NCBI GenBank assembly: GCA_905234655.1 | Contig: CAJOJG010000006.1 | Span: 4,709-68,708 of the forward strand | Direction of reading: 5' to 3' | Source of the DNA: an uncultured Bacteroidales bacterium | GTDB lineage: Bacteria; Bacteroidota; Bacteroidia; Bacteroidales; UBA3824 | DNA length: 64,000 nucleotides | Shown here: one piece after another, positions 443 through 62,234 of the stretch | Layout: the number at the start of each line of letters is the position of its first letter | Numbering within the stretch: the stretch's first letter is position 1 | Translations under genes and position numbers: made by a program | Notes under the pieces: generated by a model | Told to the model about the DNA's origin: nothing | What the model saw: only the letters and a program-made list of their open reading frames with translations | The model's database searches: none

Positions 443-549
443 AGTCACGGAAAACACGGAATTTAGTTTCCGTGGGTTCTGTAAATATTTTTGTAAAAAA
501 TATTTGTTTTCCACATTCTCTTTCAGTGTTTTCTGTGTGTTTCGTGACC
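443..549 (-). repeat. Short-form inverted-repeat element, copy A (MITE/REP-like), inverted relative to copy 59189-59295
   Basis: The reverse complement of 443-549 aligns end to end with 59189-59295 with only a few mismatches or indels. Terminal inverted repeats are GGTCACG(G)AA(A)ACAC ... GTGTTTTCCGTGAC. The core is a central palindrome, AAATATTTTT-N-AAAAATATTT. It fills the gap between the receptor stop (559) and the next start (428). Confidence 0.85.
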
Positions 550-558
550 CAAATACAC

Positions 559-3540
559 TCATATCTTTATCCTCAATGTCATTCCATAATAAAAATCGGG
601 TATGTAGCCGCTGTCGTAGAGCGAGGATTTCAGGCCGGTGCGGCTCGATTTCACGTCGCCGTTATGACAGAAAAAGTTGTTGGCGTAAAAACTTACCGAC
701 GCCCGGTCGCCGATTTCCTTTGTAACGCTGATGTTTGCGGAATAGTACGCCGAAATTTTGTCGGGGTTGAAAGTGTAGCCGTAATTAGTTGTCGTAGTGA
801 GTTTTGCGAGGTCGACGTAGAGGTTTGGGTCGTTTTCCTTGGCCCAAATGAAACGCTCGGCAAAAGGTATCAGTTCGTCGGGACGGTCCCACGTCGAATA
901 ATATGCGGGATAGACCGTTACGTAAAAATCCCTCATCTTTTCGTCGTATGGGATGCCCGTCGTCGCGCCCTTTTCGCCCGACGCATACGCCAACGTGCCG
1001 TATTTGCCGCTGTCAATCAGCAACTTGGAAAACCTGTAAAGCGTCGCTTCCACCCTCAGCGAGATTATCATACGGATTTTTGGAATGTGGGTGGTGAGGG
1101 TCAGGTTTTGGTTCAGTTGTTTTTTGAGAGTGCCATTGTAATATGAATTGCTTGCGCCAGAGGCAGTTGACGTGTTGGAACTGCCGGCGTAATAGCCAAT
1201 CAGGTTGAACGGCGTGCCGTCGGCGGCGAGCGACGTAGAATTTGGCCAATACGCTAATAATGTGGTGTTTGCGCCCTCATAACGGTAAAAACTTCCGTCC
1301 AGCCGCACCGAAGTTTTCAAGCACTTGATTTGCGGAAAATCTGCCGTCCAATCTATTCCGTAACGCTTTATGGGATTGGCGTTTACGAAAGTTGTGTTGG
1401 ATTTGTAAGTGTTTTTGGCGGTGGCGGCGAGCGTCTGCGGCGGGGTGGCGTTTGTTTTGTCGCTGACGGTAACTATGCCGCTCGTCTGGTCGATGGAATA
1501 CAGGCGGTTTTCACTCGGAATCGCAACGCCCTCTAATTCAGACGCATACGTCTTGTAATATGTGAACGGCATGTAATTATAGACCGAAATATACGACTTG
1601 AAAGTTTTGTTGTAATATGCTGATACATTGATTTTTATGCCGCTGACGACGATTTCCGTGCCCAATTCGCATTGGTTGGTGTATTGCCACTTCAAATCCT
1701 TGTTTCGCGCGGCGGCGAAGGGGTGCGTGTAATATGCGTAGAATGCCTTGCCGTCGGCGGTGGAAGTCGAGGCAAAAACTTGCTCGTCGTAGTACGTCGG
1801 ACGCGGGTAAAGTACCTGAAACGAAGGCAGTTTGACACTTTTGCCATAGCCGCCGTAGATGCTCATGGTGCTGACGGTCTTTGCGCGGTCGTTCCAAAAA
1901 ACATACTTCAAATTTCCCCTCGGCGATAGCGACGACACTGTGCCGTAATCGCTGCCCGAAATCGTCGTCAAATCCTCGCGAAGTCCAAAAGTCAACTGAA
2001 TTTCAGAGCCTTTGATGTTTTTGAAGACGGGCGCGGTGAGTTTGTTTTCGGCGTAGAGGGCGACATTGTTCATCGCGGGCAAATCCTTGTAGCGGTACTC
2101 GCGGTAGCCGTCGGGGGCGAGGCGCGGATTGTCGTAATAAATGCCTGCGCCGAGGTTCCGGTCTTGCGAAAATTCTGCGCCCACCATGATTTTGTCCGTC
2201 AAAACCGAAAAATATTTCACAAGGTCGCCTTTCAGTTTCGCGCTGAGATTCAGCGGTTTGCTTTCCGAAAATTCCTTCACGTACCAGTATCCCGTGGGCG
2301 AGAGGACGATTGGCGACGTTGGGTCGTCGTCATAGTCGTGCGCGATGAAATAGCCCTCGTCTGTCGTGTGGACGTAAGGCTGGGTGGACGCGCTGTTTCG
2401 GTTGGCGTTTGATTCAGTGGTCTTGTCGGCGGCAGACATTGATAATGAGGCGTTTAGGTTGGTAATCCAACTCTTGTTCAATAGCCACGAGAGGTGCGAA
2501 TTGAGCCGCACGACATAGTCTTTTTTCTTGACGTAATTGTCGGAAAATGCGTCGGGATCCGCTTCGGAATCGTATCCGCCGGTATTGCCGCTCGCCGAAA
2601 ATGTGAACATCAACGGATTGTCAGTCAGACTGTTGAAAGTCTTGCTGTATTTGAGGTCGAGGACGTTGCGGGCGTAACTCGTGTGCGGACTCGCGATGTC
2701 GGTGTAGGATTTGGTGTGCTCGAAAGAAGCGTTGAGCGTGCCAAAATGATTTTTGAGTTCAAATCCCTTGCTCACGGCGGCTTGCTTGGTGTGCGGATTG
2801 GTGGCGAGGTCGATGACGAATGGGGTCTTGCCTTTTTTGGTGTTGACGATTACAATGCCGTTGCTCAGGTCGCCGTATTCCACTGACGGAATGCCAGTTA
2901 TGATTTCGACGCTCTCGATGTTGGTCGCGCTGATGTTCCGCGTAGACGCGCCGGCGGTTTCGTCGAGGTCGGCATTGTTTGAGATACGTGCGCCGTCGGC
3001 TTGGATTGCGGTCGCGAAGGACGCGTTGCCGAGTTCCGACGAGCCGCTGCGAAGGGCTGTGCGGTTGTCAGTGGTGAGGGTGGAATTGACGGTCTTGCCG
3101 CCGGGCAAAAGGCTGTTGATGTCGCTGACGTTGATTATTTGCTGATGGTCCAACGCCTTGCGGTCGAGAGTGTAAGCCGTCGAAACCTCGGTGGCGGATT
3201 TTTGGGCGGTAACGGTAACTTCCTGAATTTCAAGGTTGTCCTCTTTCAGGAAAATCGTCAGCGGATTCATGTCTTTTGTAACGACAAATTCCCGCTTGAC
3301 GTAGCCGAGGCACTGCACCGAGAGTTTGATTTGGTCAGTCGGGACATTCTTGATTGTGAACGAGCCGTCGTCGGCGGAAATCGTCCACAACTGATTGTCG
3401 CCCAATACGATAGTAGCAAAAGGCACGGGCGAAGAGTCTCTGAGGCTCTTGACCGTGCCGTTGAGGGTAAAGTTTTGAGCCGACAATCCGCTGATTGTCA
3501 GGAATATCAATGCAATATAGACTAATATTCTGTGGCTCAT
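559..3540 (-). CDS. TonB-dependent outer-membrane receptor (not SusC-paired)
   Basis: 993 aa. Signal peptide MSHRILVYIALIFLTISGLSAQ. CarboxypepD_reg-like N-domain (NFTLNGTVKS...PVPFATIVL). Plug-like segment (EVTVTAQK ... IESVEIITGIPSVEYGD). A long barrel ends in ...YYGMTLRIKI. No SusD gene follows it. Confidence 0.85.
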   Translation of the reverse strand: MSHRILVYIALIFLTISGLSAQNFTLNGTVKSLRDSSPVPFATIVLGDNQLWTISADDGSFTIKNVPTDQIKLSVQCLGYVKREFVVTKDMNPLTIFLKEDNLEIQEVTVTAQKSATEVSTAYTLDRKALDHQQIINVSDINSLLPGGKTVNSTLTTDNRTALRSGSSELGNASFATAIQADGARISNNADLDETAGASTRNISATNIESVEIITGIPSVEYGDLSNGIVIVNTKKGKTPFVIDLATNPHTKQAAVSKGFELKNHFGTLNASFEHTKSYTDIASPHTSYARNVLDLKYSKTFNSLTDNPLMFTFSASGNTGGYDSEADPDAFSDNYVKKKDYVVRLNSHLSWLLNKSWITNLNASLSMSAADKTTESNANRNSASTQPYVHTTDEGYFIAHDYDDDPTSPIVLSPTGYWYVKEFSESKPLNLSAKLKGDLVKYFSVLTDKIMVGAEFSQDRNLGAGIYYDNPRLAPDGYREYRYKDLPAMNNVALYAENKLTAPVFKNIKGSEIQLTFGLREDLTTISGSDYGTVSSLSPRGNLKYVFWNDRAKTVSTMSIYGGYGKSVKLPSFQVLYPRPTYYDEQVFASTSTADGKAFYAYYTHPFAAARNKDLKWQYTNQCELGTEIVVSGIKINVSAYYNKTFKSYISVYNYMPFTYYKTYASELEGVAIPSENRLYSIDQTSGIVTVSDKTNATPPQTLAATAKNTYKSNTTFVNANPIKRYGIDWTADFPQIKCLKTSVRLDGSFYRYEGANTTLLAYWPNSTSLAADGTPFNLIGYYAGSSNTSTASGASNSYYNGTLKKQLNQNLTLTTHIPKIRMIISLRVEATLYRFSKLLIDSGKYGTLAYASGEKGATTGIPYDEKMRDFYVTVYPAYYSTWDRPDELIPFAERFIWAKENDPNLYVDLAKLTTTTNYGYTFNPDKISAYYSANISVTKEIGDRASVSFYANNFFCHNGDVKSSRTGLKSSLYDSGYIPDFYYGMTLRIKI

Positions 3541-5792: not shown

Positions 5793-8700
5793 ATGAAAAG
5801 AGAATCAATTCAATTAAGGAAATTTGTATTGCTTCTTGCCCTGATGATTTGCTCGTTCGACCTGCTTGCGCAGGTGACGCTGACGGGTACGGTCACGGAC
5901 GAGGACGGCAATACGCTTCCTGGAGTAAATGTGTTTGAAAAAGGTACCACCAACGGTACTATTACGGATCTTGACGGTAAATATATGCTGAACGTCCGCA
6001 GCGGCGCGACTGTGTCGTTCAGTTATATAGGTTACGACGAGCAAGAGTTCACCGTATCAGGCACAAAATCAATCAATGTGGTACTCAAAGAGAGTTCCAA
6101 GGAAATCGAGGAGGTCGTCATCGTCGGTTACGGCCAGCAGCGCAAGGCTTCGGTCGTCGGCGCGATTACGCAGACCTCGGGCAAGACTCTCGAACGCGCA
6201 GCAGGTGTGAGCGACCTCAGCTCGGCTCTCACCGGCAATCTCCCCGGCGTCGTCACAGTGACGAGTACTGGTATGCCGGGTCAGGAAGAGGCTAAAATCA
6301 CAATCCGTGGTGCTGCATCGTGGACTGACGGCGGTGCTGACCCGCTCGTGCTTGTGGACGGTATCGAACGTCCTATGAGCAGCGTGGACGTGTCGTCTGT
6401 ACAGAGCATCTCCGTGCTTAAGGACGCTTCCGCAACCGCTGTGTACGGTGTCAAGGGCGCAAACGGCGTTATCCTTATTACTACAAAGCGTGGTTCGGAG
6501 GGAAAGGCGCAGATTAATGTGACTGCCACTTCTACTATCAAAACTGTATCCAAACTCCCTGGCAAATACGATTCTTACGACTCATACATGTACCGTAACA
6601 TCGCTGTAGAGCATGAGTTGAACCTTTTGCCGGAAAACTTCAACCTCATCAGAACCCAGTCTTTCATCAATAATTACCGCAACCAAAGCGGCGAGGACGA
6701 ACTTGGAAACCTGATTTCAGAGCGTTATCCTAATGTGGACTGGCAGGACGAAATCTTCAAGACCCACGCGATGGCTTATAACGCAAGCCTTAACATCTCG
6801 GGTGGTAATAAGTTTGTCCGCTACTTCACCGCCGTCGACTGGGCTAATGAAGGTGACATGATGAACGTGTTTGACAATGGCCGTGGTTATAAAGGCGGCT
6901 ATGGTTACAACAGGTTCAATGTCCGTTCCAACCTTGACTTCCAGTTGACAAAGTCCACAGTCTTCAAGGTCAACCTCGCTGGCTCGCTCGGCGTCCGCAA
7001 GACCCCGTGGAACAACTCCAACCTCGGCGTAGGCGACTGGGGCATCTCCCAGCAGTGGGCCGTATTCCTCCCACAGTATGCCGACGGCTCGTGGGGCTAC
7101 GACTACCTCGCTCGTCCCAACGCCACCAACTCCGCTGTAAACGTGGCTATCGGCGGCCTCCAGTACACCACCAACACCAAAATCACCACCGACTTCATCT
7201 TGGAGCAGGACCTCAGCATGTTGACAAAGGGCCTTTCCGTTAAGGCCTCCGTCTCCTGGGACAACAACTTCAACGAGTGGCAGCGCGGTGTTAGCGACAT
7301 GTACAACGACCCGCAGTACAAGTGGATTGACCCCGAGACAGGCGAAGTGCATTACAAGACTGAGAAGGACAACCAGACCGGCCTCGACCCCGACGCCAAC
7401 CCAATCAAATGGTCCACGCAGGGCGGCAGCGTCCAGGACTGGGCCACCGGCCGAAACCTCACCTATATGGCCCAGATCAACTGGAACCGCAATTTCGACA
7501 AGCACTACATTACCGCGATGGGTTCGTTCCAGCGTGAGGAGAGGGTGACGGGCTCTTCTATCCCCAACTTGCGTGAAGACTGGATCTTCCGTCTCACATA
7601 CAACTGGAACGACCGCTACTTCCTCGAATACAACGGCGCATACAACGGCACCGAGAAATTCTCCTCCGACAACCGTTTCGCATTCTTCAATTCCGGCTCC
7701 ATCGGCTGGATGATCAGCAACGAGCCTTTCATGTCGTCCATCAAGGAAAAAGGCATCCTCGACCAGTTTAAGATCAGGGCGTCTTACGGCGAAATCGGCA
7801 ACGACTGGTACGGTTCGCGCTGGCTCTACCTCACAGAATGGGACCTCGGCTCCGGCGACGGCAACAACTTTGTCAACACAGCTCCTTTGAGCTCCGACCG
7901 TACTTCGAGCCCCTACCAAATCTACAAGGAAAGCAAGGTGGGTAATCCTGACGTCCACTGGGAAGTCGCCCGTAAGTTCAACTTCGGTATCGACTACTCG
8001 TTCCTCAATGGATTGGTTTCCGGTTCTGTCGACATCTTCAAGGACAAGCGTTCCGACGTACTCGTGGGCGGCGGTGACCGTTCTGTCCCTGCATACTTCG
8101 GACAGAGCGCACCTACCGCAAACCTCGGTAAGGTAGAGAACAAGGGTTACGAAATTGAGGTGAAACTTAACAAGACTTTTGGAAAAATACGTACATGGGC
8201 TAACTTGAACATGACTCACGCTGAAAACAAGATTATTGTAAAAGACGACGCACAGTTACTTCCCGATTACCGCAAGCAGGCTGGATATGCCATTGGCCAG
8301 ACACGTACATACTTAGATAACGGCCGCATCACCAATTACGACGAATTGTATGCAGCACCTCAAACCTACCAGTTCAACGACCAGCGTCTTATGGGCGACT
8401 ACTACATCGTAGACTTTAACGGCGACGGTCAGATTACTGAAGACGACCAGGCTCCCTGGGGATACTCCGGCACTCCGCAGAACACTTACAACGCTACTTT
8501 GGGCATCGAGTACAAAGGATGGAGCGCATTCGCGCAGTTCTACGGCGTTACTAATGTAACCCGCGACGTCAACCTCACCTCCTTCGGCGGTAAGTTCAAC
8601 AACGTCTATGAGCAGGGCACATGGTACAGCGAGGATCCCTCCAATGCCGACATCGAGACTCCGAGGTACAACTCGAGCCTCTTCACAACCGGCACTCAGT

Positions 8701-33298: not shown

Positions 33299-33339
33299 AA
33301 CCACGAAAAATTATCGTGCCTTTCGTGTTTTTCGTGGTT
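33299..33339 (+). repeat. Hairpin repeat, CCACGAAAAA variant (copy B)
   Basis: AACCACGAAAAA...TTTTTCGTGGTT. The right arm TCGTGCCTTTCGTGTTTTTCGTGGTTAAAAAAA is nearly identical to 57847-57880. It lies 17 nt upstream of ATG 33357. Confidence 0.8.
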
Positions 33340-33356
33340 AAAAAAACAGAAAAACA

Positions 33357-35729: not shown

Positions 35730-35766
35730 AAAGGAAATTTGTTTTAGTAGTTAATTAAGTAGTATT

Positions 35767-35801
35767 GAGGTCGCCTTCGCAATGAGGGCGGCCTCTTTTT
35801 G
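35767..35801 (+). terminator. Rho-independent terminator
   Basis: GAGGTCGCC-ttcgcaatgag-GGCGGCCTC followed by TTTTT, 38 nt after the stop at 35729. Confidence 0.55.
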
Positions 35802-37364: not shown

Positions 37365-37369
37365 TTTGT

Positions 37370-37439
37370 TAATGCATAATTCATAATTCGTAGTCAATGC
37401 ATTATTCATAATGCATTATTCATTATGAATTATGCATTA
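37370..37439. terminator. AT-rich perfect 18-bp inverted repeat between convergent guaB and regulator genes (bidirectional terminator candidate)
   Basis: TAATGCATAATTCATAAT (37370-37387) pairs with ATTATGAATTATGCATTA (37422-37439). The loop holds a tandem AATGCATTATTCAT repeat. The right arm overlaps the regulator's stop codon. Confidence 0.45.
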
Positions 37440-40177
37440 TTTTTCGTGATTTCGCTTGGTTTTTTGCCGAATTGGGCTTGGAAAAGTTTGGCGAAATAAG
37501 AGAGGTTGTTGAAGCCGACCATTGTGGCGACTTCGTTGACGCGGTAGCGGTTTTCGGCGAGAAGGGCGGCGGCTTTGTTAAGTCGCTCGGTGCGGATAAG
37601 TTCGTTGGGCGTCTTGCCGGTGGCTTGCTTGACCTTTTGGAACAGGCTCGACCGCGAACACCCCACAATTTCCGACAGCCTCGTCGCGTCAAGTTCCGTG
37701 TCTTCAATGTTGTCAAGTATCGCCTTGTGTAGGTCTTGCATGAACTTTTCGTCAATCGGCGATGAGGCTGGTTTTTCTATGACCTCAGTTTTCTCAGTTT
37801 TTTCAGTTTTCTCAGTTTTCTCTGTGATATTTTTCTCTGTGCCCTCAGTGATATTTTTCTCTGTGTTCTCTGCGTTTTTCCCCTCTGTGTCCTCTGTGTG
37901 TTTTGTTTTTTCCCGCCTTTTGATGATTACTACAATGGCGGCGGCAGCGGCGATGATTGACAATATGACGAACGGAAGTTTTGGCATAGAGCGGTCGATG
38001 ACGGTAATGGCGAGTTTGGTCTCGGGGCTTGTCGCGCCGCATGGTGAGACGGATTTTATTCTGAAAACATATTCGCCTTCGGGCAAGTAGTTGAGCGACA
38101 GGGTGTTGTCGTCGGCTTCATGCCAAGACGTGTCGATGTCGTCAACGCGGAACAATAACTTGTTTTGATAGGCGTTGAGCGTCCCCGGCACGGCAAATTC
38201 AAGGTACAGCGTGTTGCTGTCTATGTCCACGGTAATATGGCGGCAGAGGTGCGGCACGGTGTCGGTCGTGTGGACTTTGCCAGTGGCGAGTATGCTGGTA
38301 ATCAAGACTTTGGGCGCATTGTTGCGGGCGCTGACGTATTCGGGGCGGAAGGCGACCACGCCGTTTGTAGTGCCCATGTAAATCTTGCCGTCAGAGGAAT
38401 ACAGCGATGCGTCGGCGGTGAACTGCGAGCCGCACAGGCCATCGTATGTGTCGAAGAAGTTGAGGTTTTCGCCGTCATAGACCGCGAGTGCCTTCTGCGT
38501 CCCGATGTAGCATACGCCGTCCTGCGCCTCGATGCTGTATATTTCGGGCAGGTTGATGTCTATTTTTTCAAATTTTGAGGTCGGGATGTCGAACCGGTGC
38601 AGGCCGTTGCGCGTGCCGAGTAGGATTGTGGTGCTGTCGGTGATTTTTATGCAGTTGATGTCAGAGAGTTTGATGTCGCTCTTATAGACGGTGTGCGCTT
38701 TGGCGCGTGTGTCGTAGCGGCAGAGGCCTTCGTCAACGGGTATCCAAAGGTTGCCGTCGTGGTCTTCCTCGATAGTGTACGAGAGTTTTTTGAGCGGGGC
38801 TACGGCGTCGAAACGGTCGTCCTTGCGGTCGTAGACGTACAGGCTGTCCCACGACGCGGCGTAGAGGTCGTCGCCTTTGAGGTGCATCGCGTAGCAACTT
38901 TGACCGAAATAGTTGCGGTCGGCGACGGTGTAATTCTTTGTCTTTTTGGTTTTTAGGTTCAGTAGCCTGATTCCCTGCGAATACGTGCCTGCCCAAATCT
39001 CGTCGCCGTGGCATGATAGTGCGTGGATGTTGAGGTCGGGCATGAGGTTTTCGAATGTGCCTTTATGAGTGTCGTAGCGTGTCAGTCCGCCGTCGTCTGA
39101 CGCTATCCAAATGTTGTGGTCGTTGTCCTCTTGAAGTTCGCTGATTACATTGCCAGAGATTGAGTTGCGGTACTGGTTGTGGGTGTAGTTTTCGAAATAC
39201 TGCGTCCCGTTTGCGGCATAGTTGACGCCGCCGTAGAATGTCGTTACCCACAATGCGCCCCTTGCGTCTTTCAGCATCGAGTACACAAAGCACGACGAGA
39301 GCGATGTCGGGTCGGTGTTGTCGGCGAGTAGGATGTTGTGTGTGCGCTTTTCGGTGTCGTATATGCACAGTCCGTCGTCAGAGCCAATCATCAAAAGTCC
39401 GGGGCTGTATTCGTAGATGTTGTGTATGTGCGGCAGTTTTTTTTCGCTGATTGGGGCTTTCTGCGCGTTGCCGTCGGTGTCGATTGTGTAGAGTCCGTCT
39501 TCCCATGTGCCGTACCAGATGCGCCCCTGCGAGTCCTCGTACATCGAGCGGGCGTAGGAAGTGGATTTGATGTTGCGTAGTTTGACGGGCGAAAATTCGG
39601 TGTCCGACGCGCCTTTATAGTATAGTTGGGCTTCCTGGCTTTTCTTCGACGCCCATACGTTGCCCTTGCTGTCGCAGAATACGAATGTAGACGTCAGGTC
39701 GGTGCCGAGGGTGTAGCGCGTGGCTTTGCCAGTGGCAGGGTCGTAGCAAAAAATCCCCTGCCGGCTTGTCGAGAGCCATGCCTTGCCGCCGTGGACTGAG
39801 ACGTTGAGCACCATGGGCGGTTTGCCGTCCTCGATGGCGGGAAGGTCCGGCTTGGTGATTCGGTAGGTCGCCATGTCGAGTTCATAAAGTCCAAAGTCGC
39901 TGCCAAACAGCAACTTGCCGTCGCACAACGCCAACGATGAGACGTACTGGTTGAGTTGGTCGTCCCCAAAGGGGAAAACCTTGATTTTTGCGCCGTCGTA
40001 CCGGCAGAGGCCGTTGTCTGTGCCAAACCACATGAAGCCCGATTCGTCTTGCAAAATGCTTCTGACGCCATTGGCGGGCAGCCCGTCGTGCATGGTCATA
40101 TTGCGGAAACGGAAGTTTTGGGCGTGGCCCGCGGCGCAAATTAACAGTATGTATATGGTTGAGATTAGTCTTTTCAT
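37430..40177 (-). CDS. HTCS-like periplasmic sensor (beta-propellers + Y_Y_Y) fused via one TM helix directly to an AraC-type HTH; no kinase or receiver domains
   Basis: The preferred start is MKRLISTIYILLICAAGHAQ (ATG complement 40177); the ORF track extends to 40231. Motifs: NMTMHDGLPANGVRSILQDESGFMWFGTDNGLCRYDG (propeller repeats), EGEYVFRIKSV (Y_Y_Y), TM helix LPFVILSIIAAAAAIVVII, a low-complexity TEK-rich linker, then an AraC HTH (LSEIVGCSRSSLFQKVKQATGKTPNELIRTERLNKAAALL...VGFNNLSYFAKLFQAQFGKKPSE). At about 915 aa it is too short to contain HisKA/HATPase/REC domains. Confidence 0.85.
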   Translation of the reverse strand: MKRLISTIYILLICAAGHAQNFRFRNMTMHDGLPANGVRSILQDESGFMWFGTDNGLCRYDGAKIKVFPFGDDQLNQYVSSLALCDGKLLFGSDFGLYELDMATYRITKPDLPAIEDGKPPMVLNVSVHGGKAWLSTSRQGIFCYDPATGKATRYTLGTDLTSTFVFCDSKGNVWASKKSQEAQLYYKGASDTEFSPVKLRNIKSTSYARSMYEDSQGRIWYGTWEDGLYTIDTDGNAQKAPISEKKLPHIHNIYEYSPGLLMIGSDDGLCIYDTEKRTHNILLADNTDPTSLSSCFVYSMLKDARGALWVTTFYGGVNYAANGTQYFENYTHNQYRNSISGNVISELQEDNDHNIWIASDDGGLTRYDTHKGTFENLMPDLNIHALSCHGDEIWAGTYSQGIRLLNLKTKKTKNYTVADRNYFGQSCYAMHLKGDDLYAASWDSLYVYDRKDDRFDAVAPLKKLSYTIEEDHDGNLWIPVDEGLCRYDTRAKAHTVYKSDIKLSDINCIKITDSTTILLGTRNGLHRFDIPTSKFEKIDINLPEIYSIEAQDGVCYIGTQKALAVYDGENLNFFDTYDGLCGSQFTADASLYSSDGKIYMGTTNGVVAFRPEYVSARNNAPKVLITSILATGKVHTTDTVPHLCRHITVDIDSNTLYLEFAVPGTLNAYQNKLLFRVDDIDTSWHEADDNTLSLNYLPEGEYVFRIKSVSPCGATSPETKLAITVIDRSMPKLPFVILSIIAAAAAIVVIIKRREKTKHTEDTEGKNAENTEKNITEGTEKNITEKTEKTEKTEKTEVIEKPASSPIDEKFMQDLHKAILDNIEDTELDATRLSEIVGCSRSSLFQKVKQATGKTPNELIRTERLNKAAALLAENRYRVNEVATMVGFNNLSYFAKLFQAQFGKKPSEITKNNA

Positions 40178-40429
40178 TATTGGCAATCTATTTTTCCCGA
40201 CAAACATAAAAAAAATAATAGATTTGTCCAAAAATATCTATAATTTTATTTGTGGAACTCAAGAAACTTGTATCCGATGAAATGAACCATGTGTTCGGGG
40301 CTGTCGGCAATCCAAACCTCTGTTTCCCAGGCGATTTCAGTTACCCAACGTCGAAATTCCTTTTTGTTGAGGAACGAAGTGATAAAGACAGGGGGGCGGT
40401 GCAGTTTTTCAATTGATTTTTGAGTTTTT

Positions 40430-40465
40430 TTCAGTATCTCTGTGTTTTCCGTGTTTTCCGTGTCC
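40430..40465 (+). repeat. Solo arm of the inverted-repeat element family (copy G)
   Basis: TTCAGTATCTCTGTGTTTTCCGTGTTTTCCGTGTCC followed by AAAAAA. Only one arm is present. It lies in the regulator/GH127 divergent intergenic region. Confidence 0.6.
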
Positions 40466-40691
40466 AAAAAATACTTGCAATGTATGAACAATGTTAATTT
40501 TCCGTTTCGTCATTCCCGACTATGTTAAATTAACAATATCGTCCAAACTTATAACAAAATCGTCCAAAAACGCCATTATGGACTATCATGTTAAATATTT
40601 GGACGATTTTAGCACGCGAGGGAAAAAATAGTTTGCAACTTTGTCATGTCAATCGGGAACAAATCCGGTTAACGTAAAATTAACAAACAAG

Positions 40692-43106: not shown

Positions 43107-43197
43107 AATTGACAGTTGACAGTCGACAATTGACAGTTAGTTGATAATTGGTACGCTCTGAATAGCATTGTCAATTGTCAATTATCAATTGTCAATT
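43107..43197. repeat. Long imperfect hairpin built from TTGACA(A/G) heptad repeats
   Basis: The left arm at 43107-43150 is AATTGACAGTTGACAGTCGACAATTGACAGTTAGTTGATAATTG. The right arm at 43167-43197 is CATTGTCAATTGTCAATTATCAATTGTCAATT, its approximate reverse complement. It starts immediately after the GH127 stop. Confidence 0.75.
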
Positions 43198-43236
43198 AAA
43201 AAAGAACACATTTTAACTTAAATACTTTTTGAAAAG

Positions 43237-49716: not shown

Positions 49717-49751
49717 GCCGGAGGAAGCATCGCCTCCCTCCGGCATTTTTT
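49717..49751 (+). terminator. Rho-independent terminator
   Basis: GCCGGAGG-aagcatcgcctc-CCTCCGGC followed by ATTTTTT. Confidence 0.65.
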
Positions 49752-49769
49752 ATAAAAATTGTTTATTTT

Positions 49770-49949
49770 GAACACGGAACACACTGAAATCACGAAAATT
49801 TCTAAAAACAAATTATAAAAATACAAGTATTTTTTTTATAAACAGAAAACACAGAATTTAATTTCCGTCTTTTTCGCAAAGTAAAAATAATATATTTTCA
49901 CTTTTTTTCAAATAAATCAATTTCAGTGTATTCAGTGTTTTCCGTGACC
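49770..49949 (+). repeat. Long-form inverted-repeat element (copy D)
   Basis: It starts GAACACGGAACACACTGAAATCACG and ends TTTCAGTGTATTCAGTGTTTTCCGTGACC, followed by AAAAAAA. The right ~70 bp parallels 62118-62188. It lies 38 nt upstream of ATG 49988. Confidence 0.8.
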
Positions 49950-49987
49950 AAAAAAACAAATGGTTAACAAAAAAAGATAAATCGATT

Positions 49988-56449: not shown

Positions 56450-57754
56450 ATGAAGACGTCAAAAATAATCCTGACATTATTCCTCTCTGCCGCGCTGATT
56501 TTTCAGGCGTGCAACAAGGACGACGACGACCCCGTTGTTGACCCAGACAACCCCGACCCTGACAGCGGCGAGAAAGTAGAGGGAATCGACACAATTTCTA
56601 AGTTCAAAGTCGCTAAAATGGTGATAACCACTGAGAACGGCGCGACGATTAACGGCAAGGACAAAGCCGATTACGTCAACTGCACCATCGCCATCGAAAG
56701 CGAAAAAGAAGAGTGGAACACCACCGTTACGGGACGAATCCGTGGGCGCGGCAACTCATCTTGGAAGTGGTACGACAAAAAGCCCTACCGCCTCAAACTC
56801 GACGAAAAGTCCAAAATCCTCGGCCTGCGTTCCAACAAAGACTGGAACCTTCTCGCCAACTACCGCGACGCAACCGACCTGATGAACACTTTTGTCTTTG
56901 AACTCGGTCAACTTGCGGGTCTCGGTTACACCAACAACACCCGTTACGTGGAAATCACCTTGAACGGCGATTACATTGGTCTTTACCAACTTACGGAGAC
57001 CATCGAGGCCGCCAAAGACCGTGTCGACATCGACAAGGACAACGGCATTATCCTCTCGCTCGACGCTGACGACGGCCCTGAACTCTCGCCCGATGCCACC
57101 GACAATTTTTGGAGTGAGGTTTATTATATGCCGTGCTGCGTCAAGAATCCCGACAAGCCCACCGCCGCTCAGGTCAAGGCTGTAATGGACGAGTTTGCGG
57201 AACTTGAATACGCTGTCTATCAGCACGATTACAACGATTTTTCTGCCCTTGCCGACATCGACGCTTTCATCAACTACCTGTTGATTCAGGAGTTGGTGTA
57301 TAACGTCGAAGTCGCCGCGCCGAGGAGCATTTACCTTTATAAAGACGTCAACCAAAAATGGGGCTTCGGACCATTGTGGGATTTTGACGCGGGCTACGAC
57401 TTCGACTGGGGTTCAATGTATACTGGACACAATTTCTTCATGTCGTACAAGGAGTCAGTATTGGGAACCGACCCCAAGACCCACGACGGTGGTTACAGTT
57501 ACGTGCCGGAATTTTTCACTGACATGTTCCGCAGCAAGGAGTTCGTCCAGCACGTCCAAAACAACTGGCTCGACCTCGCCGGCCTTATCCCGCAGGCTTG
57601 GGCAAACGCTCAAAAATACGACATCTCAGCCGCCCTTGAACGCGACCTAAAACGTTGGCCGATAGACAAATCCCCCACCGTCGAAACCAAAAAGATGGGC
57701 GACTGGCTCACCAACCGCACAAACTACATGAACACCGTCGTCGGCGGGTATTAA
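56450..57754 (+). CDS. CotH kinase-fold family lipoprotein
   Basis: 434 aa. Lipobox FQACNKDDDDP. CotH signatures: GRIRGRGNSSWKWYDKKPYRLKLD, KDWNLLANYRDATDLMN, YVEITLNGDYIGLYQLTE, GPLWDFDAGYDFDWG. Confidence 0.8.
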   Translation: MKTSKIILTLFLSAALIFQACNKDDDDPVVDPDNPDPDSGEKVEGIDTISKFKVAKMVITTENGATINGKDKADYVNCTIAIESEKEEWNTTVTGRIRGRGNSSWKWYDKKPYRLKLDEKSKILGLRSNKDWNLLANYRDATDLMNTFVFELGQLAGLGYTNNTRYVEITLNGDYIGLYQLTETIEAAKDRVDIDKDNGIILSLDADDGPELSPDATDNFWSEVYYMPCCVKNPDKPTAAQVKAVMDEFAELEYAVYQHDYNDFSALADIDAFINYLLIQELVYNVEVAAPRSIYLYKDVNQKWGFGPLWDFDAGYDFDWGSMYTGHNFFMSYKESVLGTDPKTHDGGYSYVPEFFTDMFRSKEFVQHVQNNWLDLAGLIPQAWANAQKYDISAALERDLKRWPIDKSPTVETKKMGDWLTNRTNYMNTVVGGY

Positions 57755-57763
57755 GAGAATTAT

Positions 57764-57872
57764 AACCACGAAAAACACTAAAAACACTAAATTAATTTCC
57801 GTGTTTTCCGTGTCTTCCGTGGTTAAAATAAAAACAACAAAAGTTTTCGTGCTTTTCGTGTTTTTCGTGGTT
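57764..57872 (+). repeat. Hairpin repeat, CCACGAAAAA variant (copy C), composite
   Basis: AACCACGAAAAACAC...GTGTCTTCCGTGGTT (57764-57825) plus a second right arm, TTTTCGTGCTTTTCGTGTTTTTCGTGGTT (57844-57872), followed by AAAAAAAA. It lies 19 nt upstream of ATG 57892. Confidence 0.8.
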
Positions 57873-57891
57873 AAAAAAAATATATAAAAAT

Positions 57892-59181
57892 ATGAAACCG
57901 ATATTGAAACTACTCTTCCCCCTGTCGCTTTTTGCGGCGGCGGCGTGCAACAACGAGAGTGAAAACGTTGTTGCGCCCAACATCGAGGGCAAGCAAATCT
58001 TCGTCCCCAAAGACCTGGCGGACAACCTTGTAAACAATCCTTCCGACACTTCGTCGTGGAGTTACAGCCGCATGTCGCTCACTGACAATTTCGCAATCTT
58101 TTGGCAGAAAGGCTTTGGCGACAGCCTCAACAATCCGCCCGACCTCGATGGCAAGAAGATGAGCGTTGACCTCGACAACTTGCAAAAAAAGTTGGAATAT
58201 TTCTACGGCTATTACCGTGATTCACTGAAATTTATCGGTGAAAATTCCCTCGCCCAAAAATACCGCATGATGATAATGCTGTGGTATTCGCTCGAAGGCA
58301 CGGCATACGGCGGCGACTACGACCAGACGATTGGTGCGTTTTGGGTTGCGCCAAACAGGATTCAGGACACCGCGCTCAACTGTGTCGCCCACGAACTCGG
58401 ACACTCGTTCCAGATGCAGGCGCAGATTGACAAAGGCGGCCTGACCGAGGACAATTATTGGGATTGCGGGCCGTTTTACGAGATGGCCTCGCAGTTCATG
58501 CTTTGGCGGGTCAACCCCGACTGGATTCGCGACGAAAAATACCATTGGGACGCTTACCGCGAACAGTCTTTCAAGGCGTTCCTCTCTTGGGAAAACGCCT
58601 ACCACACGCCCTATGTGCTTGAATATTGGGCAGAAAAGCGCGGCGCGGACATCATCGCCAAGATGTTTCAGAACGCGAAAAAAGGCGAGGACGCGGTGGA
58701 CGTTTACAAGCGTCTGACGGGCATTTCGCAGGAGGATTTCAACATCGAAATGATGGAGGCCAACTGCAAGACTTTGAATTTGGATTTTTCACACGCATAC
58801 GCCAACACCCGCCAGTTTGTATTGCCGTTCTCGACCAAAATGCACGCTGTATCAGACGGTTACATAGAGGTTGACGACGCAAACCGTCCCGAAAATTATG
58901 GTTTCAACGCCATCGAAATCGACTTTCGCGGCAAGGAGGCCATCACCGCCGACTTTGTGCCGGAGCGCAACGACAACGTCAAGTTTTACACCCAGTTTGT
59001 CGGCATCGACAACGGCGGCAAGACGGTCTACGGCGGCATCAACGCCAACAGTTTCAAGATTCCCGACGGTCTTAAAACGTTGTACTACGTCGTGATGCCC
59101 GCCCCGCTCGTGCATTTCCACAACGTCGAAGACCCCGAAACCCAGAAAAATCCAAACTACGGATATAAGGTAAAAATGTAA
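57892..59181 (+). CDS. HExxH (gluzincin-like) lipoprotein, paralog 2 (no BACON module)
   Basis: 429 aa. Lipobox AAAACNNESEN. HELGH lies at 58390-58404 in CVAHELGHSFQMQ, with a downstream Glu in FYEMASQF. Confidence 0.75.
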   Translation: MKPILKLLFPLSLFAAAACNNESENVVAPNIEGKQIFVPKDLADNLVNNPSDTSSWSYSRMSLTDNFAIFWQKGFGDSLNNPPDLDGKKMSVDLDNLQKKLEYFYGYYRDSLKFIGENSLAQKYRMMIMLWYSLEGTAYGGDYDQTIGAFWVAPNRIQDTALNCVAHELGHSFQMQAQIDKGGLTEDNYWDCGPFYEMASQFMLWRVNPDWIRDEKYHWDAYREQSFKAFLSWENAYHTPYVLEYWAEKRGADIIAKMFQNAKKGEDAVDVYKRLTGISQEDFNIEMMEANCKTLNLDFSHAYANTRQFVLPFSTKMHAVSDGYIEVDDANRPENYGFNAIEIDFRGKEAITADFVPERNDNVKFYTQFVGIDNGGKTVYGGINANSFKIPDGLKTLYYVVMPAPLVHFHNVEDPETQKNPNYGYKVKM

Positions 59182-59188
59182 ATCTTTT

Positions 59189-59295
59189 GGTCACGGAACA
59201 CACAGAAAACACTGAAAGAGAATGTGGAAACAAATATTTTTTACAAAAATATTTAACAGAAACCACGGAAACTAAATTCAGTGTTTTCCGTGACC
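59189..59295 (+). repeat. Short-form inverted-repeat element (copy E, archetype)
   Basis: GGTCACGGAACACACAGAAAACACTGAAAGAGAATGTGGAAACAAATATTTTTTACAAAAATATTTAACAGAAACCACGGAAACTAAATTCAGTGTTTTCCGTGACC. It has terminal inverted repeats of at least 14 nt, inner complementary AACACTGAA/TTCAGTGTT segments and a central AT palindrome. It lies 20 nt upstream of ATG 59316. Confidence 0.85.
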
Positions 59296-59315
59296 AAAAA
59301 AAATCATAAGTTATA

Positions 59316-62000
59316 ATGAAAAAGTTCCTATTTCTAATTTTGTTGTTTTTCCCGCTGTGGCTCAATGCGCAGACGGAGATAACCTCGCCGAACAAGAAAA
59401 TCAGCGTCAAAGTTTCGGTGCATAACTCGGATGTCGTGTACTCTGTGAGTTACGGCAACACGCTGATAATGAGCGACTGCAAGGCGGCACTCATCGGCAA
59501 AGACTTTGCCACGAAATACGCCTTGAAAAAGTCTAAACCGGCATTGAAAACCGAGAAAACCACCTCGCCGTTCTACCGTTTCAGTAGTTTTGAGGTAAAG
59601 TACACCGAACAAAAATTCACCCTCGCCAACAATCTCGGAATCGTTTTCCGTGTCTTCGACGACGGCGTTTCTTACCGTTTCATTTACACCGGCAAAACCT
59701 CGGCGGAAGTCGAAAACGAAAAAGCCGTGTTCAATTTCACTGACGATTACAATTCGTGGATGTCGTTCACAACCAACGACAAAGACCCATTTGCAATGGC
59801 GTTTCAAAACATCTATTCTGAGAAAAAACTTTCCGCTCAAGAGTCGAAGCTCTCGTTCCTGCCCGTTGTCGCCGACTGTGGAAAAGTCAAGGCGACAGTT
59901 TTGGAAAGCGACTTGGAACATTTTCCGGGAATGTTCCTCAAAGCCGACGGCAAGAGCCTCAAAGCCGAGTTTGCACGTTATCCCAAAAAGTTTGACAAAT
60001 ATCCGTGGCGCGGAATGTCGTATGTGGCTGAAAGAGAGAATTTTATCGCCAAGATTAATGCCAACTTCAATCTTCCGTGGCGCATAATTTCGCTCACCGA
60101 AAACGATGCTCAAATGCCGGTCAGCAACCTTGTCTACGCCCTCAATTCGCCAAACCGTATCGGCAATACCGATTGGATAATCCCCGGCAAGTCGGCGTGG
60201 GACTGGTGGAACGATTGGAACATCAAAAACGTTGATTTTCAGGCTGGTATCAACACCGAAACTTACAAATATTTCATAGATTTTGCCGCCTCTCATTCGC
60301 TCGAATACATTATCCTCGACGAGGGTTGGTACGACAGCAAGAAGGCTGACATTATGAACCCGATTGCTGACATAAACCTCAAAGAATTAATCTCTTACGC
60401 AAACGATAGGGGTGTGGGCATCGTCCTTTGGGCGGTGTTTAATGTAATTGACGAAAACCTCGACCAAGTTTTTGCGCATTATTCCAAGATGGGTGTCAAG
60501 GGTTTCAAGATTGATTTTCTCGACCGCAACGACCAGACCGCCGTCGAAATGGCGTACCGCATCGCCGCGAAAGCCGCTGAATATCAGTTGGTTTTGGATT
60601 ATCACGGTTTTTATCCGCCGTCCGGAATGAACCGCGCTTACCCAAACGTTATCAATTTTGAAAGCGTTTTCGGAATGGAGGAGATGAAATGGAACGAGGA
60701 CAAAAAGGACATGCCGCTCTACGACGTTACATTCCCCTTTATCCGCATGATGTGCGGCCCCGTCGATTACACGCCCGGCGCAATGCGGAATGGTACAAAA
60801 CATTGGTATTCACCTATTTACGGCAACCCGATGAGCATGGGCACGAGGTGTCATCAGTTGGCGGCGTATGTGGTTCACGATTCGCCGTTTACGATGCTTG
60901 CCGACGCACCGAGCGCGTACCTGCAAGAGGAAAGTTTCACCGACTTTTTGTCAAAAATCCCCAACAATCCCGACTTTACCCAAATCCTTTCGGGCAAAAT
61001 TGGCGAACACGTCGTTACCGCCCGCAGGTTTGGTTCTGATTGGTTTGTAGGCGGTCTTACTAACTGGGACGACAGGGATTTGAACATCAGTTTTTCGTTT
61101 TTGGATTCCGACACTGACTACGATGTCGTACTCTACAAAGACGGCAAAAACGCGAACCACAACGGCGAGGATTATGCCGTTGAAAAATTTTCTGTCAAAA
61201 ACACAGATTCCAAGAATATTCATCTTGCCTCGGGCGGCGGTTTTGTAATGAAAATTTCTAAAAATTACAAGACTTCTTCACTTCCCACGTCGATTCCGTC
61301 AGACAAGAAGTTTGATAAGTTTTACAAAAAATATCTTAACATTTCAGGCATTCCGACGATTTCGAGCGCGAATGTCAGCGATTCGGCGTTGATAAAAACT
61401 CAGGAAATCATTTCGGTAATGCTCGCCAAGCGTCCCGACGTCAAGCGGAAAATGATTGAAAAAGGCTGTTACACAATGGTTTTGGGCAAAGATGAACAAG
61501 TCTGTGAACTGCCCGAATACGCGCATTTTTGCAACTGTGAGGACAGCATAAAATATTGGAACTGGCGGGCGCGTGGTTTTGGCGGTGCGCCTCAGCACGA
61601 AATTTCGGCAAGTTTCGGCGAGGAAAATGTTTTGGCTTTGACTTCCGACAGGTATCGTGGCGAAAACATCCCGATTCACGAGTTTTCGCATTTGATTCAT
61701 CTCGTTGGCATCGAGGGCGTTGACCCGACGTTCAGAAAGCGTCTGACCGATTGTTTCAATAATGCCAAAAGTCTTAATCTTTGGTCAGGAACATACGCAT
61801 TGTCAGACATTTACGAATATTTTGCTGAGGGCGTTCAGTCTTTTTTCAACTGCAACCAATACGTCCTGCCCGCCAACGGTGTCCACAACGCAATCAACCG
61901 CCGCGAAAAACTCAAAATCCACGACCCTCGGCTTTACAACTTGCTGAAAGAGTTTTTCTACGAAACGGACATTGATATTTACAACGAGGTGCATAGATGA
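59316..62000 (+). CDS. GH97 glycoside hydrolase fused to a C-terminal HExxH...EYFAE zincin-like domain
   Basis: 894 aa. Signal peptide LFFPLWLNAQ. GH97 motifs: GKSAWDWWNDWN, YIILDEGW, GVKGFKIDFLDRNDQ, VLDYHGFYPPSGMNRAYPNVINFESVFGMEE, MMCGPVDYTPGAM. After about aa 645 (about nt 61270) there is an extra ~240 aa domain with HEFSH (61677-61691) and YEYFAEGVQSFF about 45 aa later. Confidence 0.85.
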   Translation: MKKFLFLILLFFPLWLNAQTEITSPNKKISVKVSVHNSDVVYSVSYGNTLIMSDCKAALIGKDFATKYALKKSKPALKTEKTTSPFYRFSSFEVKYTEQKFTLANNLGIVFRVFDDGVSYRFIYTGKTSAEVENEKAVFNFTDDYNSWMSFTTNDKDPFAMAFQNIYSEKKLSAQESKLSFLPVVADCGKVKATVLESDLEHFPGMFLKADGKSLKAEFARYPKKFDKYPWRGMSYVAERENFIAKINANFNLPWRIISLTENDAQMPVSNLVYALNSPNRIGNTDWIIPGKSAWDWWNDWNIKNVDFQAGINTETYKYFIDFAASHSLEYIILDEGWYDSKKADIMNPIADINLKELISYANDRGVGIVLWAVFNVIDENLDQVFAHYSKMGVKGFKIDFLDRNDQTAVEMAYRIAAKAAEYQLVLDYHGFYPPSGMNRAYPNVINFESVFGMEEMKWNEDKKDMPLYDVTFPFIRMMCGPVDYTPGAMRNGTKHWYSPIYGNPMSMGTRCHQLAAYVVHDSPFTMLADAPSAYLQEESFTDFLSKIPNNPDFTQILSGKIGEHVVTARRFGSDWFVGGLTNWDDRDLNISFSFLDSDTDYDVVLYKDGKNANHNGEDYAVEKFSVKNTDSKNIHLASGGGFVMKISKNYKTSSLPTSIPSDKKFDKFYKKYLNISGIPTISSANVSDSALIKTQEIISVMLAKRPDVKRKMIEKGCYTMVLGKDEQVCELPEYAHFCNCEDSIKYWNWRARGFGGAPQHEISASFGEENVLALTSDRYRGENIPIHEFSHLIHLVGIEGVDPTFRKRLTDCFNNAKSLNLWSGTYALSDIYEYFAEGVQSFFNCNQYVLPANGVHNAINRREKLKIHDPRLYNLLKEFFYETDIDIYNEVHR

Positions 62001-62013
62001 TTTAATGCTTTTT

Positions 62014-62188
62014 GGGACACGGAACACACAGATGACACAGAAAGTGAGTGTGAAAACTAAATATTTTTTAGCAAAAATATTTACTGAAATCACGGAAACT
62101 AAATTCCTTTTTTCCCGTCAAAAATTTTAAAGAATTCAAAATTTTGTTTTTCGCAAAAGATTCAGTGATTTCAGTGTTTTCCGTGACT
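62014..62188 (+). repeat. Long-form inverted-repeat element (copy F)
   Basis: GGGACACGGAACACACAGATGACACAGAAAGTGAGTGTGAAAACTAAATATTTTTTAGCAAAAATATTTACTGAAATCACGGAAACTAAATTCC..., then a ~70-bp extension ending GATTCAGTGATTTCAGTGTTTTCCGTGACT followed by AAAAAA. It lies 46 nt upstream of ATG 62235. Confidence 0.8.
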
Positions 62189-62234
62189 AAAAAATGTACA
62201 ATTTTGATTTACTAATTTATTAATACTTAATACA

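Follow-up and report, generated by a model that had tools for sequence, protein, structure and literature searches.

Introduction

Repetitive extragenic palindromic (REP) sequences are characterised by a GTAG or CGTC tetranucleotide tag beside an 8–13-bp stem (PMC3733652). Here, we describe a 107-bp hairpin-forming repeat at 59189–59295 of a 64-kb stretch of DNA from an uncultured Bacteroidales bacterium (contig CAJOJG010000006.1; 'the window' denotes the whole of this stretch), together with six relatives in the same window. We think it probable that all seven are gene-less, non-autonomous copies, similar to a MITE (a miniature inverted-repeat transposable element) or a REPIN, of a selfish GxxExxY element. 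The full-length form of this element is about 445 bp long and comprises a left arm, the GxxExxY gene (PF13366, a predicted minimal PD-(D/E)XK nuclease) and a right arm.

The REPIN/RAYT systems, or REPtrons, of Pseudomonas fluorescens and the BIMEs of E. coli resemble this arrangement in several respects. They are short, multi-copy intergenic palindromes that form hairpins and are over-represented after genes but rare in divergent promoter gaps; gene-less copies occur beside a small nuclease-type gene with the same repeats on either side, and several sequence subfamilies are present per genome, in mosaics with other repeat modules. They lack a target-site duplication, and none was seen at the junctions compared here. 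Were the repeat a classical REP/REPIN family moved by a RAYT (Y1 HUH) transposase, this would account for intergenic palindromes between co-directional and convergent genes, for the absence of a visible target-site duplication, and for a single small nuclease-type gene within repeats, as in a REPtron. We nevertheless regard this explanation as extremely unlikely. The window copies have no GTAG or CGTC tag, and their arms are about 30 nt of 2–4 tandem 8–9-nt units rather than 8–13-bp stems. No Y1_Tnp gene was found between arms in the loci that we fetched, where the contents are PF13366 genes and one PF13310 gene. The enclosed gene is of the PD-(D/E)XK and not the Y1 HUH type, and it lies inside host operons, co-oriented and often with its start overlapping the stop of the upstream gene. 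Finally, REP sequences are species-specific, whereas here near-identical arms and 75–90% identical proteins are found across phyla.

The MITEs that are found in operons (Neisseria Correia elements, enterobacterial ERIC and pneumococcal BOX/RUP) share with the present element a length of 50–200 bp, terminal inverted repeats, insertion polymorphism among close relatives, long and short modular variants, and co-transcribed stem-loops that are able to change mRNA processing or stability. Unlike these MITEs, the present element has no detected target-site duplication and no DDE-transposase partner, its taxonomic spread is far wider, and its full-length relative carries a 125-aa nuclease gene instead of an insertion sequence (IS) transposase gene.

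Intervening sequences of 23S rRNA are also bounded by inverted repeats, which form a long stem, and sometimes contain a small open reading frame (ORF; PF05635); they lie within a functional transcription unit and are removed by RNase III. The elements described here differ in that they lie between protein-coding genes and carry a different ORF family. An approximate consensus of PF05635 matched no gene in the loci that we fetched, which is uninformative.

A hairpin repeat between genes of polysaccharide-utilisation loci

Copy B, the 107-bp element, and the reverse complement of copy A are identical at 102 of 107 positions (95.3%), in agreement with the near-identity over full length given in the preliminary description. 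By comparison, B is 61.7% identical to A read forward and 63.6% identical to its own reverse complement. These three values define a near-palindrome that still has a polarity, and this polarity is alike in A and B relative to the downstream genes. The two are recent copies of each other, 95% identical and 58 kb apart.

Using a repeat finder and multiple alignment, we identified a total of seven copies, A–G, ranging from 34 to 190 nt (Table 1). These include the relatives previously placed at 33299 (F), 49770 (D), 57764 (E) and 62014 (C), to which the one-armed seventh copy, G, is now added; the description of the repeat as a dispersed, MITE/REP-like inverted-repeat element is supported. The arm motif GTGTTTTYCGTGRYYAAAA, allowing up to three mismatches, has 13 occurrences in the window compared with 0.29 in shuffles (shuffle maximum, 2). 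Copies A–F (6/6) are all located in gaps between co-directional genes of polysaccharide-utilisation loci (PULs) of the SusC/SusD type, the flanking genes encoding a TonB-dependent receptor, SGBP-B, GH10, DUF4859, DUF6055, CotH and GH97. The distances from the arm end to the next ATG are 14, 17, 19, 20, 38 and 46 nt, and both the intergenic siting and the 14–46 nt range stand as first reported.

Table 1. Positions, settings and predicted folding of the repeat copies in the window
Copy	Position	Strand	Description and setting	Folding energy (kcal/mol)	z
A	443..549	-	Same element as B; between TonB-dependent receptor gene (559-3540, -) and next minus-strand gene (ATG 428-426)	-26.9	-3.7
B	59189..59295	+	107-bp hairpin; DUF6055 (57892-59181) / GH97 (59316-62000) gap	-37.7	-8.2
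C	62011..62194	+	GH97 / BACON-DUF6055 gap (ATG 62235)	-44.2	-3.4
D	49766..49955	+	B-like arm types, loop different and longer; 38 nt upstream of ATG at 49988	-39.7	-6.4
E	57764..57879	+	CotH / DUF6055 gap; one 5' arm, two 3' arms in succession	-30.8	-5.1
F	33299..33346	+	Minimal 48-nt hairpin; SGBP-B-like gene / GH10 gap	-17.1	-4.7
G	40438..40471	+	One-armed remnant CTCTGTGTTTTCCGTGTTTTCCGTGTCCAAAAAA; divergent gap 40232-40640		

The arms are made up of 2–4 tandem units of 8–9 nt, with the words CACGGAA(N)1-2, CACAGAA or CACTGAA on the left and their complements (TTCCGTG, TTCAGTG) on the right. Copies A–D end in G(G/A)(T/A)CACGG...CCGTGAC(C/T), and copies E and F in AACCACG...CGTGGTT. In the window copies the stem is preceded by a T-run and followed by an A-run, so the flanks extend the helix; with these runs included, copy B spans 59185–59303. 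The loops vary, with a nested palindrome in B, about 75–100 extra nt in C and D, and a minimal form in F. Copy C has the 5' arm, centre and inner 3' arm of B, followed by an extra ~75 nt and a second, outer 3' arm. In copy E, the 5' arm is AACCACGAAAAACACTAAAAACAC and the 3' arms are ..CCGTGGTT and then ..TTTCGTGGTT, while copy F (AACCACGAAAAA ... TTTTTCGTGGTT plus A-run) is of the type that is found across phyla. All two-armed copies fold as long hairpins, as had been proposed, and no shuffle was as stable. The repeat is thus a short (<~500 bp), non-coding, multi-copy unit with terminal inverted repeats, as is characteristic of MITEs.

On the downstream side the A-run has 7–8 A, compared with 0–5 T in the upstream T-run, which places an A-rich tract ahead of the start codon. 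When B was folded together with its downstream sequence, the start region was unpaired with the element stem. The preliminary description emphasised that the same end of each copy faces the ATG. This is partly automatic, as each end of the palindrome reads ...CGTGAYY on its own strand; the true asymmetries are the internal sequence and the longer downstream A-run.

GxxExxY genes are bracketed by the same type of arms

Longer elements with ends of the same type exist and encode a GxxExxY nuclease, and none was found with the exact B-type termini. In 790 kb of loci selected by the arm motif there are five GxxExxY genes, four of which adjoin CACGAAA-type arms (L053, L040, L085 and L115 7250–7663). 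The fifth (L115 1102–1524), only 41% identical, has arms of a different word (CGCAGAG) on both sides. The Desulforhopalus gene (L053) is a 139-aa ORF that starts MNHETRTTKG..., with arms on both sides, and matches TIGR04256 (7.8e-44) and PF13366 PDDEXK_3 (1.5e-44). Since the profile match begins at residue 22–23, the N-terminus of this ORF is the translated arm. In L040 the layout is stop-TTTTTTAACCACGAAAAACACGAAAGACACGAAA-...ATG gene TGA-..TTTCGTGTCGTTCGTGTTTTTTCGTGGTTAAAT.

Loci were also selected by protein, using a profile of the five GxxExxY proteins. This gave 570 metagenome loci, and we retained the 80 that scored best (59–83% identity, a narrow clade). A gene was counted as bracketed when inverted arms with at least two tandem units per side lay immediately around it. 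By this definition, 50 of the 74 GxxExxY genes in non-redundant loci with enough flank are bracketed, compared with 1 of the 97 ORFs that neighbour them; under a looser criterion, applied by eye, about 64 of 76 show such arms. Pairwise homology across unrelated host contexts extends from (ATG)AACCACG to just past CGTGGTTAAAAA, giving the unit of ~445 bp. The arm subtype tracks the protein clade: GTCCACG-type arms fall in one protein cluster (15/15), ACCACG types fall in others, and GGAA-word arms form sub-clusters within the ACCACG group. Arm pairs 250–2600 nt apart enclose no DDE or Y1 transposase; they contain GxxExxY genes, one RhuM gene and spurious repeat translations alone.

The window copies conform closely to these arms, which we defined by a left arm of at least two tandem CAC-N-(G/A)A(A/G) units, a right arm of the complementary units, a ..CCACG / CGTGG.. 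terminus and an A-run after the right arm. Copies E and F match fully, and A–D match except at the terminal trinucleotide, where GTCACGG or GAACACGG stands in place of ACCACG. The arms of copy D (GAACACGGAACACACTGAAATCACGAAA ... TTCAGTGTATTCAGTGTTTTCCGTGACC) are close to those around the GxxExxY genes in L204 (ACCACGGAACACACTGAACACACGGAA ... TTCAGTGTATTCAGTGTATTCCGTGGT) and L159.

The position of the full-length elements in host operons is also that of the window copies. Both neighbours run in the same direction as the GxxExxY gene in 33 cases, and both run against it in 3. Its start codon often shares bases with the stop of the preceding gene, in the sequence ATGA, whose A is the arm's first base (L126 2501, L146–L149 1501, L207 608 and others), and because of this overlap gene callers translate the arm, giving N-termini such as MNHERHEKHEK in public records; many family members in databases begin MNHE(K/R)HEKHEK, a translated arm. 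The right arm end (...CGTGGTTAAAAA) is followed at ~15–25 nt by the next start, and the next gene has its own ribosome-binding site. Host contexts include restriction–modification operons (DUF4391 and methylase; mod and res) and an ABC-2 exporter pair. Given the co-orientation and this stop/start geometry, the full-length element occupies tight operon junctions and relies on read-through. In this arrangement the left arm is at the stop, and the right arm with its A-run comes just ahead of the next start; the window shows the same pattern, and the window polarity (6/6) matches that of the full-length elements. In an isolate of Bacteroides finegoldii (NZ_OY725952.1), radA-TAG-..CACCACAGAGGACGCAGAGGACACGGAGGA..-GxxExxY-TAA-..CTCTGTGACCTCTGTGTCCTCTGTGGTGAAAAAAT-ATG(next gene) is the same geometry as that of the gene-less window copies.

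The residues D71, E81 and K83, which correspond to the D...ExK motif of PD-(D/E)XK nucleases, are invariant in 43 sequences, and family proteins are 75–90% identical across Desulfobacterota, Lentisphaerota, Planctomycetota, Anaerolineales, Nitrospira and Bacteroidia. From this conservation, the GxxExxY nuclease looks active and horizontally mobile. In a published survey of the superfamily, PDDEXK_3 is entered as 'unknown' and multiple transfers between divisions are noted for it (PMC3424549). The GxxExxY protein has no sequence relative among solved structures. An AlphaFold model (pLDDT 73, pTM 0.56) has the order alpha-alpha-beta4-alpha-beta2, as expected for the PD-(D/E)XK fold, and Foldseek returned weak matches (E ~0.01, TM 0.3–0.46) to Cas4 SSO0001, archaeal Hjc resolvases and splicing endonucleases. 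The predicted fold is consistent with the Pfam assignment, and nothing more.

A second gene family also occurs between the arms, as a RhuM gene (PF13310, start MMNHEKHEK) lies between the same arms at 2960–4099 of L053 (Desulforhopalus vacuolatus DSM 9700). With two families enclosed, the arms could be attC-like recombination sites of a separate recombinase, with GxxExxY and RhuM as promoterless cargo and the gene-less hairpins as empty cassettes. As in integron cassettes, the enclosed genes are small, promoterless and co-oriented with host operons under read-through transcription, and the arms are imperfect inverted repeats of ~30 nt. Such a cassette system is, in our judgement, distinctly unlikely. 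GxxExxY is by far the commonest content, and the arm subtype follows the GxxExxY clade. Unlike attC sites, the ends read ..ACCACG / CGTGGT.., with no RYYYAAC / GTTRRRY core sites, and the copies are single insertions scattered over unrelated operons with one dominant gene family. There is no integrase among the annotated window ORFs, no cassette array and none beside an intI-like gene, and no integrase or recombinase gene was noticed beside copies, whose neighbours were not systematically annotated.

Two of these loci have further features. The RhuM gene of L053 is inserted between mod and res of a type III restriction system, 2 kb from the arm-bracketed GxxExxY gene. In L136 (2070–3150), a GxxExxY gene lies between two ABC-2 exporter genes and is surrounded by four gene-less hairpins with the same arms, the loops of which contain a second conserved palindrome, AAGTCAGCGGATGATCGCG...CGCAAGCATCCGCTGACT.

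The arm is distributed across phyla

We scanned one genome per species with the 24-mer pattern TTYMGTGTTTTYCGTGRYYAAAAA, for which we estimate from the pattern degeneracy ~0.3 chance matches in 596 Gb. The E/F-type arm (TTTCGTGTTTTTCGTGGTTAAAAA) was found in many phyla, at no fewer than 115 loci and in at least 126 copies. Among the matches listed are Lentisphaeria, Verrucomicrobia, Kiritimatiellae, Planctomycetota, several Bacteroidota, Fibrobacteraceae, Cloacimonadaceae, Spirochaetes (among them Treponema and Leptospiraceae), Desulfobacterales, Bradymonadales, Nitrospirae, Caulobacteraceae, Burkholderiales and Thiotrichaceae, and the isolates Desulforhopalus vacuolatus DSM 9700, Asticcacaulis aquaticus and a Pedobacter. 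This range is a lower bound, as the names come from 80 of the at least 115 loci. The core module consists of three units and a tail, TTTCGTGnC TTTCGTGTT TTTCGTGGTTAAAAA, and occurs as hairpins with a AACCACGAAA.. partner 60–150 nt upstream, as isolated arms, and combined in mosaics with modules specific to a lineage. At the scanned loci there are also sister families that have this architecture and use other words.

All 126 copies listed end in CGTGGYY or CGTGATT, the E/F type. The A–D terminus, CCGTGAC(C/T), is present in 0 of these 126 and was seen solely in the window and in contigs L118 and L119 from the same population, and the A–D subfamily is thus so far known from this population alone. 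The link between copy B and the gene-bearing elements consequently rests on shared architecture and unit words, on the B/D-like arms of L204, L159 and L192, and on the co-occurrence of B with E and F.

Gene context was also tabulated for 72 intergenic copies in other genomes, using gene calls from longest-ORF heuristics. Between co-directional genes, 24 copies have the A-run towards the next start and 25 the opposite; convergent gaps have 20 copies and divergent gaps 3. In common with REP-like elements, the family avoids gaps of the promoter type, and it has no overall polarity relative to genes. The orientation bias noted in the window does not, therefore, extend to the family as a whole.

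No Rfam family matched the 64-kb window at gathering thresholds, and a permissive Rfam search of 57700–59400 returned generic miRNA-precursor hairpins alone, at ≤23 bits against thresholds of ≥50. Searches of the literature by sequence string and keyword found no description of the 107-bp repeat or of a link between the repeat and GxxExxY, in keeping with the earlier remark, whose author was aware of no described Bacteroidales repeat with this sequence. A phage origin and carriage on plasmids were considered and set aside: the motif matched only 2 viral contigs and the GxxExxY profile none, and tblastn matched 8 of 72,556 plasmid records, mostly chromid-sized, with no match for copy B by blastn. 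A resemblance to Mu ends or to ParB-parS, in the form of partial word matches, was likewise dropped; the termini of the repeat have no TG/CA ends, and Mu-like genes were not seen.

Composite repeats were seen in two groups. In Desulfobacterales (L012, L017, L034, L097, L099, L107 and L111), a single TTTCGTG arm lies within the loop formed by another conserved palindrome, ATACCAAATCGCTTTCAAAA ... CTTTGAAAGCGATTTGGTAT, and this composite is common to several genomes. In the Lentisphaeria metagenome-assembled genome SBF912LR0HQ0165 (L010, L029, L031–L033, L084, L091 and L093), one-armed modules TTTCCGTATATTCCGTGTGTTCAGTGGTTACAA and TTTCGTGTCCTTTCGTGTTTTTCGTGGTTAAAAAA are joined to a short hairpin, GGTTGTGGACGGATAGTCCACCCTAAG, forming mosaic repeats with many copies per genome.

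Orthologous junctions differ between relatives

Syntenic metagenome contigs carry proteins that are 79% and 84% identical to the window DUF6055 protein, and we compared their gene junctions with those of the window. At the CotH/DUF6055 junction, the window has 137 nt with copy E, L123 has 11 nt and L120 has 13 nt. At the DUF6055/GH97 junction, the window has 134 nt with copy B, L123 has 69 nt with a short CACGAAA-type hairpin, and L120 has TGTAAAAATATG. At the GH97/DUF6055 junction, the window has copy C, L123 has a hairpin of the same architecture built of CACAGAG words, and L120 is not comparable. Both comparable junctions are therefore empty in L120, and empty junctions in the relatives measure 4–13 nt. 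In the same-population contigs L118 and L119, E and B are unchanged.

Since the orthologous junctions of the relatives are either empty or hold a different hairpin, the element is a fast-turnover insertion. Presence/absence at orthologous sites is a MITE feature, and it was found here, with sites filled in the window and empty in L120 and L123; insertion polymorphism had been among the checks proposed at the outset. Comparison of filled with empty junctions reveals no direct repeat, the flanks consisting only of the inverted T-run and A-run, and the spacers are too diverged for base-exact placement. The hairpin in L123 at the junction orthologous to that of copy C (6232–6353) consists of CACAGAG / CTCTGTG words, as found around the GxxExxY gene of Bacteroides finegoldii (L226).

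An alternative to a selfish insertion is that the repeat is an exapted cis-acting RNA. The transcribed hairpin would be a barrier to 3'-exonucleases, a processing site for RNase III/E, or a translation insulator between cistrons, and the A-run would serve as an unstructured, A-rich leader of the kind preferred in Bacteroidetes. Such effects on mRNA are known from REP, ERIC and Correia elements. This explanation accords with the location of 6/6 copies in co-directional operon gaps with one polarity, with the very stable stems and the unpaired start region downstream of B, and with the different hairpins that L123 has at two of the three orthologous junctions, as if a hairpin were favoured. We judge it unlikely, as L120 has neither comparable junction occupied, with genes 4–13 nt apart, the gene-less copies in other phyla are unbiased (24 versus 25), one-armed copies are common, and no covariance-model family matches. 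In addition, mismatches between the arms comprise 24 G:T and 37 A:C, mostly in the 2-nt spacers between units, a spectrum that fits recognition of the repeated units in DNA better than selection for an RNA helix. With no G:U excess over A:C on the sense strand, selection on the arms at the RNA level is not supported. A role in RNA is compatible with mobile GxxExxY-derived copies as a secondary effect; the hairpin could alter mRNA decay, and if it does, this would be a by-product or an exaptation.

The preliminary description interpreted the orientation as a sign that the element supplies a promoter or 5' UTR to the downstream gene, or acts as an attenuator. In such a model of a mobile donor, the orientation would be kept because the element drives or gates the downstream gene, and the uniform polarity (6/6) at 14–46 nt from the ATG suits this. 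Copy D is also preceded by a canonical intrinsic terminator at 49717–49750 (GCCGGAGGAAGCATCGCCTCCCTCCGGC then TTTTTT), such that the gene at 49988 probably starts a new transcript within 49751–49987. However, this region contains no recognisable Bacteroidetes promoter motif, and none of the six element-bearing gaps contains TAnnTTTG, the -7 motif of Bacteroidetes, whether alone or together with a TTTG upstream of it. The sole sigma-70-like match, at 59290–59317, spans the 3' arm of B, with its -10 hexamer overlapping the ATG, and Bacteroidetes are not known to use the sigma-70 consensus. The same genes are 4–13 nt apart in relatives, and the family is depleted from divergent gaps elsewhere (3/72). 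With no promoter motif, terminator or Rfam match, and with operons of relatives lacking the element, a promoter or 5'-UTR role is not supported. Neither is attenuation, as no T-run follows the stem of any copy on either strand and none was called terminator-like; the element is thus not a canonical attenuator or terminator. True terminators nearby (49717–49750 and 35766–35796) look different. We consider this model very unlikely.

A proposed selfish element with a nuclease gene

The interpretation of the window repeats as gene-less copies of the GxxExxY element brings with it a putative mechanism, which may be outlined as follows. The GxxExxY nuclease would recognise the repeated units, or the hairpin or cruciform that they form, and would mobilise its own element and, in trans, the gene-less copies. 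Insertion may target, or survive only in, the short spacer from a stop to the next start. The polarity in the window, with the A-run towards the ATG, would be inherited from this insertion geometry rather than from any service to host genes. In a polycistronic PUL mRNA, the element would add a stable stem-loop and leave an A-rich start region single-stranded, and any effect on mRNA decay or translation would be a by-product.

Several observations weigh against this interpretation. There is no GxxExxY gene in the 64-kb window, the DNA of this organism that was read being the window and ~7 kb of identical contigs. The exact A–D termini are absent from all cross-phylum matches listed. Under the bracketing criterion, 24 of 74 GxxExxY genes have no clear arms, and the sample is a best-scoring narrow clade. 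Many of the copies in other phyla have a single arm, which a mechanism that depends on a hairpin leaves unexplained, and the junction comparison defines neither a target-site duplication nor a clean excision footprint. As for the protein, its predicted fold gave only the weak matches reported above, and the nuclease could itself be cargo, given that one RhuM gene is likewise found between arms.

A broader proposal, which we put forward tentatively as possible, is that bacteria have a hitherto unrecognised class of mobile element, mobilised by the GxxExxY protein. In such a class, a minimal PD-(D/E)XK nuclease of ~125 aa would recognise ends made of tandem 8–9-nt units, and the element would insert without target duplication into the few bases between stop and start in operons, with expression by read-through and translational coupling. 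It would occur in ten or more phyla and seed large populations of gene-less hairpins, some of which are absorbed into coding sequence.

If the link between the repeat and GxxExxY holds, it would provide a function by context for GxxExxY / PF13366, a family that is very common, of unknown function and almost absent from the searchable literature. It would also explain intergenic hairpin repeats of Bacteroidota, the PVC group, Desulfobacterota, Spirochaetes and Proteobacteria that break metagenome assemblies, and would point to a chemistry of transposition or homing that is absent from the described IS families, with a minimal PD-(D/E)XK nuclease acting on ends that form hairpins. In Bacteroidales, the long stem-loops between genes of PULs would be recent selfish insertions and not conserved regulators, which matters for reading operon structure, coverage steps in RNA-seq and small-RNA predictions at PULs. 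Annotated N-termini such as MNHEKHEK would be translated repeat arms.

Other tandem-unit repeats in the window

A coding role of the units (as F-R-V or H-E-K repeats) was considered and applies solely to arms that overlap an annotated start or the linker of a regulator. The regulator gene at 37430–40231 (Reg_prop/Y_Y_Y/HTH_AraC) contains, in frame at 37780..37900 (-), a one-armed array of the sister words CTCAGTT / CTCTGTG / CTCAGTG (+ strand words). The array encodes a TEK-rich linker, ...KRREKTKHTEDTEGKNAENTEKNITEGTEKNITEKTEKTEKTEKTEV..., right after the membrane helix. A relative of this regulator in L120, 44% identical, has a 22-residue gap exactly at the array-encoded linker, and it would seem that the regulator has taken up a repeat module as a linker.

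Two further hairpins in the window have the tandem-unit architecture with other words. One, at 37365–37429, lies between the convergent IMPDH and regulator genes and has ATGCATAATTC-type units. The other, at 43107–43236, lies in the GH127/SusC gap, is composed of AATTGACA(G/A) units, and has a folding energy of -36.9 kcal/mol.

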